From contig JAZDKB010000004.1 in the NCBI GenBank assembly GCA_043803405.1, forward strand, positions 32,001 through 96,000: a stretch of DNA of 64,000 bases, written 5' to 3'. The notes beneath the pieces were generated by a model, which was not told the DNA's origin, ran no database searches, and was given only the letters and a program-made list of their open reading frames with translations. The stretch's first letter is position 1; each line of letters opens with the position of its first letter. The translations under genes were made by a program, and so were the position numbers. The stretch is from Spirochaetota bacterium. Lineage in GTDB: Bacteria > Spirochaetota > UBA4802 > JAFGDQ01. Positions 47,090 to 52,239 of this stretch are shown here, one piece after another.

Positions 47090-48715
47090 TTAAAAAAATA
47101 AGGACGCATATATTCCAAATTTAGGATATAAACTGCTGTCCTCATAACTCTTATTAAGAGTCGTGCTCCGGGCTTTGTGATATTCCAGCGCTGTAAAAAA
47201 ACCGAAGTTATATTTGTTTTTATAAGTGTAGATCAGATAAACAGCGTTTGTATGGGAATCGCTCCGGTATTTGAACAATTGATCTTTTGCTGAATCAATG
47301 CCGGGAACTCCTGTAATGTCATTTCCAACTTCATATCCGTTGTACGAGTTTTTAAACTTTATTCTTCTGTAAATATAGCTATATCGTATATTTATATTTT
47401 CAAGATATATGGTTTCTAAGTTAAACCTTAGTATCCCTATCTGGGTATTTATTTTTATTTTTGGTACTGTATTTGCGTTATTTTCAGAATCATCAGTTGA
47501 ATCATTGTATTTATTACCCATAAAAGAAAAAGGATCAAATTGTAATTCGATTTTTAAAAAATGGTTCTGATAACTGGCGCCAAAACGATATGAGGGTGCG
47601 AAACCATAGTAACCGTTATTTTTGCTTCCATCCCGGATCCCCATGTTTAAACTGTCATAATACCATTGCAATGTGCATCTGCCATAATCTAATCCTGTTT
47701 CAAATGATATGCTGGGATTTAAACCATCATCCGGTGTTTTAAGGTCTCCTGATTTCCATTTGTATTTTTCCCATGGGACCAGGAACATATTAGGATCGAT
47801 CATGATGCCCAGGTGGAAATAATCGACCTTAAATCTATAGTAAATCTGTGTCTGGGTTTCTTCGTGGACAGAGTAGGGCATTGGGGCGCTCCCTGTGAGA
47901 AATATATGCTGGTAACCGAATATACCCGATGAGTACTCATTCTGCAAAATAGGTGTAAGATTGTTATTCCTGGAATTGGATGAGCCATATCTTGATCCGT
48001 ACGAAAACCAGTATCCGAGTGAAGTATAGTTTTTATATATCTGGGGTACGGCATAGAATTGCTGATATGTGTTATACTTATCAATACGCTCCCTGCCTGC
48101 TTTAATCCTGTCCAGTTCGATCTTGATCTGCACTGAATCATTCAGCATTTGCTGAGGAAAAACTTTTATTGTTTTTGCTTTACCTTTTTGAGTTTCTAAA
48201 TCAATAACCGGGCATAATCTGAAAGGATATGGATGCACGAATTCATAATTAATATTGCCATTATTATTAAAATTAATTTCCTTGCTGATTTTTTTAATTT
48301 TTATTTTCCAGATATTTTCTTTTGAGATTAAAACCTCGTGTCCGTCCAGGGTCAAAAAGGAAATATCGTTTTCGGAATAATCGATCGGCCAGCCTTCAAT
48401 AAGATTAACAATTTTATTATTCTGGACTGTGTCGATCTGGACTATATCTTCAAGTTCGTTTTTCTGAATCTGTATATAGGGAAAACTGTCTATTGAATAA
48501 GAGGTAAAATAAATTATTTCATACCTGGGGATCTCTTTAAATTTACCCTCCAGGGTTAAGAGTGTAATCTTTGATTTTTCTACTTTTAAAATGACTCCAA
48601 GTTCTCTTTCACAGGAAGAAACATAAAGTCCCTGTATATTTATAGCATATAGCGCTTCCGGAATAAATATTAATAGAAATATTAATATTATATATTTTTT
48701 AAAAAATAAGTTCAA
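47090..48715 (-). CDS. Hypothetical outer-membrane protein (paralog B)
   Basis: Probable TTG start at 48715 giving signal MNLFFKKYIILIFLLIFIPEALYA; C-terminus FGIYASLFF. Confidence 0.65.
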   Translation of the reverse strand: MNLFFKKYIILIFLLIFIPEALYAINIQGLYVSSCERELGVILKVEKSKITLLTLEGKFKEIPRYEIIYFTSYSIDSFPYIQIQKNELEDIVQIDTVQNNKIVNLIEGWPIDYSENDISFLTLDGHEVLISKENIWKIKIKKISKEINFNNNGNINYEFVHPYPFRLCPVIDLETQKGKAKTIKVFPQQMLNDSVQIKIELDRIKAGRERIDKYNTYQQFYAVPQIYKNYTSLGYWFSYGSRYGSSNSRNNNLTPILQNEYSSGIFGYQHIFLTGSAPMPYSVHEETQTQIYYRFKVDYFHLGIMIDPNMFLVPWEKYKWKSGDLKTPDDGLNPSISFETGLDYGRCTLQWYYDSLNMGIRDGSKNNGYYGFAPSYRFGASYQNHFLKIELQFDPFSFMGNKYNDSTDDSENNANTVPKIKINTQIGILRFNLETIYLENINIRYSYIYRRIKFKNSYNGYEVGNDITGVPGIDSAKDQLFKYRSDSHTNAVYLIYTYKNKYNFGFFTALEYHKARSTTLNKSYEDSSLYPKFGIYASLFF

Positions 48716-50345
48716 AAGCGCCACCGTATTCACATTTTTGTAATATTTTATTATCTTTATGATCAAAAAAATTATAATTATAAATATTATAGTAATAATT
48801 GAAGGTTGCTTTGATCGCCACATAATCGCTGAATCGGTTATGTAAATAGACTCCGGCATTATAATGCTGAAATTTTATATTATTTTTGTATTGTGGATAA
48901 ATCTGGCTGCTACCTGTCAAATCAAGGGCTTGAAAGGTCTCGCTGTATTTCCCGGACAGTATAATTCCATCAAGTCCAAGTTTTAACTCATTTGTTAAGC
49001 TGTAAATCAGTCCTGCTCTGAAATAGAATGAATTCAAACTGTATTTTTTTAAAGGGGTTGAATCATCATCCTCATATTCGGAATAGCCATTGACCTGTTT
49101 ATTATCTCCGGCATATCGTACAAAAACATTTTTCTTAATATCTCCGTTGCTGTCATTATAATCAGATATAGAAAAAATAGCCTTTATTTTCAGGTCTCCT
49201 TTATAGTAAATAAATCTTACAGTCGGGGATGTCTTTGGGGAAACGATTTCTCTTACATGGTTATTAACGTTCAAAGCATATATGGGATAGAACATGCCTA
49301 GAGAAGCGGAATATGGACCGTAATCAATTCCTAATAAAAGCATGTAATTATAATTAATCTCAACATAGGGGTTGTAGGAATATAATAGACTATTTGAATA
49401 ATCCAGATTATTCTTATCCTGTGTATAAAACCTGGTTCCTGCTGGCAGAGAACCGAGATTCATGTTCCCTATAAAAAGAGTATTGAAGAAATGAGTCTTA
49501 ACATCAGACTGCAGTATATTCGTATCAAAAAGTTCAGGAAGCCACTCTGAATCTGTTGTACCAACGGTTGTTTTACTCTGAAAACCATAGGCTTTGCCTG
49601 TAGACCATTGCATATACAGATCACCATTATTACTTTCTTTAAATCCGGCTTTCCGAAATAGTAAATTGCTTCCGAGTTTAAAATCCTGATCAAATATTAA
49701 AGGTTTTGCGTATAGATAGGTTCTTTCCTGGTAGCTGTATATTTTTATCAAATTATCCCGGGTTTTAATTAAATATTTACTAATATTTATTTTACCTTTA
49801 AATACCCTTGTAGGGTAAATAGTCAGTCCAGAAATGATTTTGCCTGTTCCCTGTGTGTTCTCATTCTCAGTATTTAAGATTACTTTTTTATAATTTGAAA
49901 GCTGCATACTGTCATTTTTTTTAAAATCATATTTTCTGAGTTTAACTATGTCTGTGAGTTTATGAACATGAATCTTGCCGCTTAGATCAAAAAATATAAC
50001 CATTTCATCTATCATTTGTATAGGAAAACCGGTAAAGGAGGGCGTGTCATTATCGAGTAGATATACATCCCGCAAATATTCCGCAATCTGTGAATTCAGA
50101 TCAATTTTTTCTATTGGATTCAAAACTATATTGTATATATATAAAACTTTTATACTTTCTTTATCTATTTTATTAACTTTGCCTTCCAGTGTCAGCACGC
50201 TTAAAGATGTTTCGTCAACACCTAATATAAATCCGGAATAATTCCGTTCTTTATTATCAGTAAAATTATAAATTTCAAATGCTGCGGCATTTATTTGAAA
50301 AATTATAATAATCAGAACTGATATTAGTATTTTAATAAGATTCAT
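48699..50345 (-). CDS. Hypothetical outer-membrane protein (paralog A)
   Basis: Signal peptide; Tyr-rich beta pattern; C-terminus YGGAFELIF; motif-level similarity to the downstream gene. Confidence 0.7.
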   Translation of the reverse strand: MNLIKILISVLIIIIFQINAAAFEIYNFTDNKERNYSGFILGVDETSLSVLTLEGKVNKIDKESIKVLYIYNIVLNPIEKIDLNSQIAEYLRDVYLLDNDTPSFTGFPIQMIDEMVIFFDLSGKIHVHKLTDIVKLRKYDFKKNDSMQLSNYKKVILNTENENTQGTGKIISGLTIYPTRVFKGKINISKYLIKTRDNLIKIYSYQERTYLYAKPLIFDQDFKLGSNLLFRKAGFKESNNGDLYMQWSTGKAYGFQSKTTVGTTDSEWLPELFDTNILQSDVKTHFFNTLFIGNMNLGSLPAGTRFYTQDKNNLDYSNSLLYSYNPYVEINYNYMLLLGIDYGPYSASLGMFYPIYALNVNNHVREIVSPKTSPTVRFIYYKGDLKIKAIFSISDYNDSNGDIKKNVFVRYAGDNKQVNGYSEYEDDDSTPLKKYSLNSFYFRAGLIYSLTNELKLGLDGIILSGKYSETFQALDLTGSSQIYPQYKNNIKFQHYNAGVYLHNRFSDYVAIKATFNYYYNIYNYNFFDHKDNKILQKCEYGGAFELIF

Positions 50346-51241: not shown

Positions 51242-51385
51242 TCATCCTTTCTTTCTTTTTTTCAGGTTCTCATCCTGAGAACATTTCCTGCTTATTCAGG
51301 TAGAAACTCCAAGTTTCGGTAATAGCCATCTGTTTAGAATAAACCACCCGATTATAATAAGAATTAAGATATATTCCGGTTTCAT
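51242..51385 (-). CDS. Putative small membrane selenoprotein (U-x4-C); 47 aa with Sec30, 29 aa without readthrough
   Basis: Not in the ORF track. AGGAG RBS; MKPEYILILIIIGWFILNRWLLPKLGVST-UGA(51296-51298)-ISRKCSQDENLKKRKKG; hairpin 3' of the UGA. Confidence 0.6.
51263..51290 (-). promoter_or_regulatory. Candidate SECIS element (small selenoprotein)
   Basis: GUUCUC-AGGAU-GAGAAC stem-loop with lower CAG/CUG helix; loop begins 19 nt after the UGA. Confidence 0.55.
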
Positions 51386-51521
51386 GATATTTTAAATCTC
51401 CTTTTATTATTTTTATCTGACAAACCAAAGCTGGGGGAGAAACCGGCGCGATAGCACCGAAAATATCCTCCCCATCATTTATAATTTTTTTTCTGGAATA
51501 TGAATTAAGTAATATATAAAT

Positions 51522-51824
51522 TTAACAATGAGCGCCATTATTGATCGTAAAACCTTCATTATAGGCTGTTTTGTAGAAATCTATTTCTAAAGGTGAATTG
51601 CCGCCTATCATGCCTATGGTTTTTTCATCAATTATGATCTTTACTTTATCGAAATTGTACAGCTTATCCTTTGTGTCTTTTGACTCATCCAGAGCCATCC
51701 CCAGATTGGGTCCGCCTCAGCCTATTCCTGCTACATAAAGTCTAAATGCAGGTTCCTTATAATCGGATTTTTCCAGTAGTTCACTAAGCCGAATCTTTGC
51801 TTCGTTGGTTATGTTGATATTCAT
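51522..51824 (-). CDS. HesB/IscA-like selenoprotein, 100 aa, Sec36
   Basis: Not in the ORF track. AGGAG RBS; MNINITNEAK...FRLYVAGIG-UGA(51717-51719)-GGPNLGMALDE...GFTINNGAHC; the UGA sits at the GxGC/U position and the frame continues with HesB-like sequence. Confidence 0.88.
51681..51697 (-). promoter_or_regulatory. Candidate SECIS element (HesB-like gene)
   Basis: UGGCUC-UGGAU-GAGUCA stem-loop; loop begins 25 nt after the UGA. Confidence 0.55.
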
Positions 51825-51902: not shown

Positions 51903-52178
51903 TTATGATTGTAAAATCTTAATTATTTCCTTAACCCGTTTATCTACTACTTCATAGCACGTATTAACCCCGTCTTTTCTGGGTACTATTATACCTCTGT
52001 TTTTTAATACTGCCAGATGCTGTGAAACCGTCGACTGCGGGAGCTTAAGCTTTTCAACCATTTTGTTGACATTGCATTCATATTCGGCCATCAACCCCGT
52101 GATCAGTTTTAATCTTACAGGATGCCCGATGGCTTTTAATATTTCACTGTCTTTGTTAAAATCGATTGGTTTACTCAA
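51903..52178 (-). CDS. ArsR/SmtB family regulator
   Basis: LKAIGHPVRL, PQSTVSQHLAVLK; two Cys (ECNV, TCY); TTG start. Confidence 0.92.
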   Translation of the reverse strand: MSKPIDFNKDSEILKAIGHPVRLKLITGLMAEYECNVNKMVEKLKLPQSTVSQHLAVLKNRGIIVPRKDGVNTCYEVVDKRVKEIIKILQS

Positions 52179-52209: not shown

Positions 52210-52239
52210 TATATTACAATATTATAATATACTTGTCAA
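52210..52239 (-). promoter_or_regulatory. arsR promoter with palindromic operator
   Basis: TTGACA on the minus strand (52234-52239) next to near-palindrome TATATTACAATATTATAATATA. Confidence 0.5.

Follow-up and report, generated by a model that had tools for sequence, protein, structure and literature searches.

The predicted selenopeptide gene and its probable transcription unit

The window, by which is meant the whole 64,000-nt stretch analysed, carries at 51242-51385 a 47-codon open reading frame on the minus strand, the plus strand over the same interval being interrupted by stops. The features of the locus are as follows.

52211..52239, minus strand: promoter-like TTGACA-17-TAATAT (one of 18 found; shuffles give 7.8)
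51903..52178, minus strand: ArsR/SmtB-family repressor gene, first of the unit (NF033788 over its cut-off)
51522..51824, minus strand: HesB-like selenoprotein gene with the motif G-U-G-G-P and its TGA at 51719-51717, directly upstream of the peptide gene
51434..51473, minus strand: GC-rich intergenic hairpin in the gap between the HesB-like and peptide genes (-22.5 kcal/mol, no U-tail)
51398..51403, minus strand: Shine-Dalgarno-like AAGGAG, 12 nt before the ATG
51242..51385, minus strand: predicted 47-codon selenoprotein gene (ATG at 51385, single hydrophobic helix, W-x-L-P-x-x-G-x-x-T motif, U30, C35, charged tail)
51314..51379, minus strand: predicted membrane helix, residues about 3-24 (AlphaFold2 and hydropathy)
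51296..51298, minus strand: in-frame TGA, codon 30, predicted selenocysteine
51281..51283, minus strand: Cys35 codon of U-x4-C, invariant in 30 of 30 sequences of alignment A1
51266..51282, minus strand: SECIS-type hairpin, 7-bp stem, GGA loop at 51275-51273
51244-51242, minus strand: second TGA, end of the 47-codon frame, after a Lys/Arg-rich tail

The preliminary description of this locus had placed the frame at 51385-51242 with U30, C35, a basic tail and a second UGA, all of which stand, and had left its strand unstated. The strong ribosome binding site that it named is present as a motif but the spacing to the ATG is slightly long. Its single hydrophobic helix is borne out by hydropathy, with a best 19-residue Kyte-Doolittle mean of 1.88 at residues 5-23 of the peptide, and by AlphaFold2, which from a 53-sequence alignment predicted a helix at residues 3-24 (pLDDT 88-89 over residues 1-20) followed by a tail of low confidence (pLDDT 57-67), the one-helix model having a pTM of 0.39. 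The gene is single-copy in the genome.

One metatranscriptome contig spans 51250-52206 with no differences, running through the intergenic hairpin, which could either stabilise the message or attenuate it. The remainder of the 5.5 kb examined was uncovered except for a 143-nt piece in a YhhN gene, which lies 150 nt downstream of the peptide gene, and a partial match of 53 nt from a different sequence; two sister RNA runs (X2 and X3) gave no cover of this 5.5-kb region. The ArsR, HesB-like and peptide genes are likely to be co-transcribed, the RNA contig fitting a single transcript without proving it. The ArsR protein has two Cys residues (35 and 74) that are conserved in five close relatives, making it a candidate redox or metal sensor, and it scores far below the BigR cut-off (48 against 155 bits). 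No thioredoxin or rhodanese gene lies beside the peptide gene in the window. Elsewhere in the window, at 47090-50345 on the minus strand, two long frames of 589 and 548 aa overlap; they seem to be related, their N-termini being signal-like and their C-termini aromatic.

Predicted decoding of codon 30 as selenocysteine

The genome has what a SelB/SECIS-dependent selenoprotein requires (selA, selB, selC and selD, with UGA otherwise a stop). The genes for SelD (with its own TGA), tRNA-Sec, SelA and SelB form a cluster on contig C26, and the presence of prfB (RF2) means that UGA otherwise acts as a stop. Among the window genome and 100 relatives, 61 of 101 were matched by the family search, 58 with TGA at the site and two with Cys (G012 and G033). 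The match in G050 was spurious, giving no profile match once cut out, as was also the case for a second hit in G051, and a second hit in G161 was without the motif. A selA match was found in all 58 TGA carriers and the TGA form in none of the 16 genomes without selA, although 12 of these 16 come from one family such that they are not 16 independent cases. In G033, an 84% complete genome in which selA was not found, the peptide (L035 and L214) is Cys-type yet a 10-bp hairpin remains, which looks like a recent loss of selenocysteine, and G012 has kept selA and a Sec-containing HesB-like gene with a Cys-type peptide.

The codon at the site was TGA in 178 and TGY in 16 of 194 distinct DNA loci, with nothing else seen, 15 of the 16 TGY loci deriving from a search that required Cys. 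A metagenome pattern that allowed any codon at the site but demanded the downstream Cys, and so gave a non-random sample, returned at least 120 matches (114 distinct), all with TGA. In all 66 loci that were not pattern-selected no stop interrupts the frame for at least 14 codons past the TGA, the other two frames closing within 12 codons in 32 and 31 of the 66. U or C at the first site is constant across members, and 56 of 67 unbiased loci have a spacing of four residues between it and the following Cys; Cys35 is missing or displaced in L187, L204, L205, L219, L223 and L224. Of 30 Cys-bearing loci from other phyla, 14 have most of the Cys codon outside the hairpin stem, which argues that the Cys is kept for the sake of the protein. 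In one branch (L215 from G010, L118 and L119) another in-frame TGA lies nine codons further on, within the hairpin's 3′ arm, and may be a stop or a second selenocysteine. Several relatives have an additional copy (L206-L211, L216, L217 and L220), which is more divergent, in many cases longer at the N-terminus, and has TGA at the site.

A protein library clustered at 50% identity gave 1216 clusters at E values up to 0.001. Among the best 150 database proteins, 149 of which could be parsed, the residue at the site was C in 115, W in 18, R in four, G in two, L in one and S in one, with eight ending there. The absence of TGG from the site in 194 DNA loci indicates that the W and G entries probably come from gene callers using other codes, and the R, L and S entries are probably single-base variants.

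The hairpin consists of seven Watson-Crick pairs around the GGA loop, 20 nt past the UGA, and is the same structure as the 6-bp stem with a 5-nt loop 19 nt after the UGA that was first described. Its minimum free energy is -8.3 kcal/mol over a 63-nt stretch (z -2.7; 5 of 200 shuffles equally stable) and -7.0 kcal/mol for the 32-nt core alone. With a GGA loop, 7 bp, 20 nt and the 63-nt energy it agrees with a bacterial SECIS model that, in the available part of its source, specifies a 3-9 nt loop, a 4-16 bp stem, a G within loop positions 1-2, a distance of 16-37 nt from the UGA and a free energy of -7.5 kcal/mol or lower (PMC13188914). The stability of the hairpin is modest for the window gene alone and decisive across homologues. 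Of 141 TGA forms 116 have a stem of at least five pairs with G at the loop start, where 200 synonymous recodings gave a mean of 7.4 and a maximum of 14, and so do 30 of 37 members of a separate set; a hairpin of at least five pairs was also found in 7 of 16 Cys forms, suggesting recent changes from Sec to Cys. The covariation analysis proposed in the preliminary description came out in favour of the structure, as, with L013 (a Cys form) and L023 (shorter by one codon) set aside, the other 28 loci among the 30 of the window's group show pairing in 81.5% of cells and variation on both sides in four of six pairs, compared with 45-61% pairing for slid control structures, the structure having been derived from the window sequence and the relatives being kin.

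Three observations had been named as counting against read-through, namely homologues with TAA or TAG at the site, no conservation after the UGA and a lack of Cys homologues, and none of them is seen: TAA and TAG occur in none of 194 loci, the downstream Cys is conserved in a frame open in 66 of 66, and Cys homologues make up the greater part of the best 150 proteins. With TGA aligned to TGA or Cys at position 30, conservation on both sides and a covarying hairpin, the read-through first proposed is upheld. The RNA contig, which comes from another data set and covers the site without differing letters, indicates that the TGA is no assembly error. Codon 30 is predicted with very high confidence to be read as selenocysteine, and we strongly infer that SelB reads the hairpin and inserts selenocysteine there, translation continuing to the second TGA.

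The readings of the site without selenocysteine, or as a leader, are jointly very improbable. If the TGA were a real stop the product would be a 29-residue peptide and the frequent TGA-ATG would start a separate coupled mini-ORF, in line with the ATG that 51 of 67 unbiased loci have straight after the site and with the database proteins that end at the site. This is scarcely credible and largely refuted, given the lack of TAA or TAG, the continuity of the Cys forms, which keep the same Met, the ATA that the window gene has in place of this ATG, the absence of ATG in 16 of the 67 loci and the selection of the hairpin at synonymous sites. A short frame with a hairpin might also suggest a selenium-sensing leader peptide controlling a downstream gene, but the peptide gene is last in its unit here and the downstream genes differ between loci, many of them lying on the other strand; likewise, the 18 W and two G entries might suggest that TGA is Trp or Gly under a changed code, but prfB is present, one tRNA-Sec reads UGA and TGG is absent from the site. 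Leader control or recoding is thus highly unlikely.

Family membership and distribution

On sequence comparison the gene is assigned to an already predicted but uncharacterised selenoprotein family, referred to as 'Geobacter lovleyi' or, in the Global Ocean Sampling (GOS) data, 'Unknown'. The claim that the peptide is novel does not hold, as members with U at the site were already printed in the supplementary data of 2008 and 2025 papers. In the available part of the 2008 GOS paper '#Unknown' stands among previously described families with 15 sequences and 0 Cys homologues (PMC2398784), and the portion of Peng 2016 that is available counts 'Unknown (Geobacter lovleyi)' in 5 organisms (PMC5029168, Table S3), the link to this second entry being by name only. 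Members share a hydrophobic helix, the motif W/Y-I/V-L-P-x-x-G-x-x-T-U, a Cys five or six residues on and a charged tail, and by-eye comparison with the printed members found the helix, L-P-x-x-G-x-x-T-U and downstream Cys of a 45-70 residue protein in the window peptide. P0107, a match to the window profile (E 3.8e-9), is identical by eye to GOS entries letter for letter except at the Sec site. The window member differs in being linked to a HesB-like selenoprotein and ArsR, and in contrast to the published counts Cys homologues are abundant here and the family is far commoner than 5 organisms.

No published functional study of the family was found in the literature; main-text searches for its motifs gave nothing, its members appearing in supplements. 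There was no match among the 119 families of a 2026 catalogue, the available part of which has no U-x4-C motif and no 'lovleyi' (PMC13188914); BSepDB Table S2 or Haft and Tolstoy 2025 may include it. The accessible parts of PMC1976440 and bioRxiv 2022.07.06.499078 hold nothing on it. No NCBIfam model came near its cut-off with the window peptide or with sets of 30, 53 and 27 members, Pfam gave no match with the window peptide and 27 members except for the thioredoxin parts of two fusions, and NF049942, NF049953 and NF041197 had no match at the peptide locus. Weak hits to F0F1 subunit b were rejected as generic helix matches. No solved structural relative was found (best E 0.46), and a Cys homologue used as query against the ESM Atlas gave one unnamed cluster of 123 members at 0.88, which serves as a lead only. 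Among the best 120 of 589 homologues the source names were 'hypothetical protein' or blank, one stray label aside. The YgaP-like TM (PF11127), DUF6132 (PF19628) and CD1871A (NF040920) families are likewise short membrane proteins with a Cys near the membrane, and PF11127 and PF19628 proteins occur beside family members, but they have another motif and no HMM match to the selenopeptide family.

Using profile A2 on random genomes, with the four centre genomes (chosen as Cys forms) left out, carriers made up 41 of 100 genomes in the phylum of G101 (Desulfobacteraceae), 28 of 80 in that of G103 (Bryobacterales) and 8 of 100 in that of G102 (Planctomycetaceae), and none of 80 sampled genomes in that of G104 (Chloroflexota). 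For the G103 set, read from the match table only, a TGA lay inside the match for every random carrier. In the G102 set selA was present in 7 of 8 carriers, a weak test there as selA was found in 73 of 101 genomes; this figure is itself a high share of Sec users for the phylum. Viral contigs and plasmids gave no family match.

A possible redox role at the membrane

The positive-inside rule of membrane topology holds that the basic flank of a helix faces the cytoplasm. Across 177 loci K/R is richer after the helix than before it in 92%, the short N-flank having means of 0.2 K/R and 0.9 D/E and the 12 residues before the Sec 1.8 K/R and no D/E. This bias would put the N-terminus outside and the tail inside, with U-x4-C on the cytoplasmic side next to the membrane.

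Of 194 loci, 23 had thioredoxin, 20 rhodanese, 21 ArsR and 15 DUF302 within 1.7 kb, at least one of the four types being found at 58 loci and none at 136; 1 kb on both sides was available for only 112 of 205 loci. The expected frequency, about 0.2-0.3% per window, was taken from copy numbers in this one genome and is a crude underestimate, and kin are not independent. DUF302 directly adjoined the gene at 14 loci. A scan of 110 out of another 133 immediate neighbours yielded five TauE, two OsmC, two AhpC/redoxin, three MerR and one CsoR-type protein, most being unmatched or unrelated. Selected loci have MBL-rhodanese, SQR-like, DsbD-thioredoxin and DUF6132 genes nearby, and two of the best 150 homologues are thioredoxin fusions, one of which, P0135, looks frameshifted; a search for longer forms found none, the same search having also missed both fusions. 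Such gene types are parts of persulfide-homeostasis operons, according to the available part of one paper (PMC13467558). A persulfide-responsive operon of the BigR/SqrR type would combine a persulfide-sensing repressor with genes for PDO, SQR, rhodanese or TauE. Genes of this kind were seen at other loci; none of these enzymes is encoded beside the window gene, where the ArsR is below the BigR cut-off. In two Bacteroidota loci (L043:3007-4419 and L046:3027-4334) a thioredoxin, a DUF302 protein, a small unmatched membrane protein, a Cys-type peptide and a DUF6132-like protein are encoded in this order as a conserved run, and in L053, L056, L093, L097, L106 and L113 the following gene encodes a Cys/His-rich protein, some 100 residues long, that neither Pfam nor NCBIfam matches.

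The reading that we favour, at a probability of roughly 0.45, is that of a single-helix membrane selenoprotein whose U-x4-C at the cytoplasmic face serves as a redox or sulfane-sulfur contact recycled by thioredoxin. Judging only from the neighbours, Sec30 would react with an oxidant or persulfide, Cys35 would resolve the adduct as a Se-S bond and thioredoxin would re-reduce this bond, resetting the peptide. In this genome the peptide and the HesB-like selenoprotein would be co-transcribed with the ArsR-type repressor in control. The U-x4-C redox or metal site of the preliminary description thus stands as a site, with its conserved downstream Cys and aligned U/C, its redox or metal role being conjectural.

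The ArsR/SmtB neighbours at 21 of 194 loci, together with the one CsoR-type and three MerR-family proteins among the 110 scanned neighbours and the extra tail Cys of many Cys forms, would also suit a genuine selenoprotein in which the Sec/Cys pair, rather than undergoing redox cycling, holds a soft metal (Cu, Hg, Zn or As) at the membrane, perhaps as a dimer. This is unlikely, as no metal ATPase or metal-efflux family is prominent among the recurrent neighbours and the ArsR and CsoR folds include persulfide sensors too, as noted in the part of PMC13467558 that is available.

It is also conceivable, if doubtful, that a genuine selenoprotein acts as a small accessory subunit of, or anchors to the membrane, a partner that differs between lineages (a HesB-like Fe-S/Se carrier, DUF302 or rhodanese-YgaP), with the Sec carrying sulfur or selenium. 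Among the 30 loci of the window's group, 16 have the HesB-like gene directly upstream, and in L035 it and the peptide are both Cys-type, as in a joint switch. The adjacency of DUF302 at 14 loci, and a W-x-L-P-x-x-G-x-x-T motif conserved beyond the needs of a simple anchor, point the same way, but HesB linkage is confined to 20 of 205 loci, each of them similar to the window's group, and no partner is common to most loci.

In its wider form, the favoured redox reading would make the peptide a minimal bacterial counterpart of SELENOS-type proteins, with SELENOK resembling SELENOS as a single-pass membrane selenoprotein. SELENOS has one membrane helix and a disordered cytoplasmic tail in which Sec and a resolving Cys form a bond that thioredoxin reductase reduces in vitro, so far as the available part of the source goes (PMC13524514). 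It differs in being 189 residues long, with Sec as the penultimate residue and a 13-residue gap separating it from the Cys, compared with the 47 residues, U-x4-C and Sec right after the helix of the window peptide, such that the likeness is one of analogy only; the peptide does not belong to SELENOS or SELENOK, its Sec lying 17 residues from the end and Pfam giving no match. It is a tentative proposal, and on balance doubtful, that the Sec-x4-Cys tail captures an oxidant or persulfide on the inner face of the membrane with recycling by thioredoxin, and that the peptide is among the commonest selenoproteins of Desulfobacterota, Acidobacteriota and this spirochaete group.

This is a real gene that almost certainly encodes a selenoprotein, from a family that is under-counted and uncharacterised. 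The selenoprotein prediction itself is old, and what is added here is breadth, SECIS statistics, Cys homologues and operon context. Gene callers truncate the gene at 29 codons, omit it or misread its TGA, and current catalogues and HMM libraries are without the family, with the result that selenoproteome counts of several phyla miss this protein in about 10-60% of sampled genomes. At 47 residues the peptide can be synthesised whole, and with natural Cys variants at hand the role of a membrane-tethered selenocysteine in bacteria is easily testable. If the SELENOS-like proposal is true, the peptide would supply a step that present-day models of sulfane-sulfur homeostasis in anaerobes lack.
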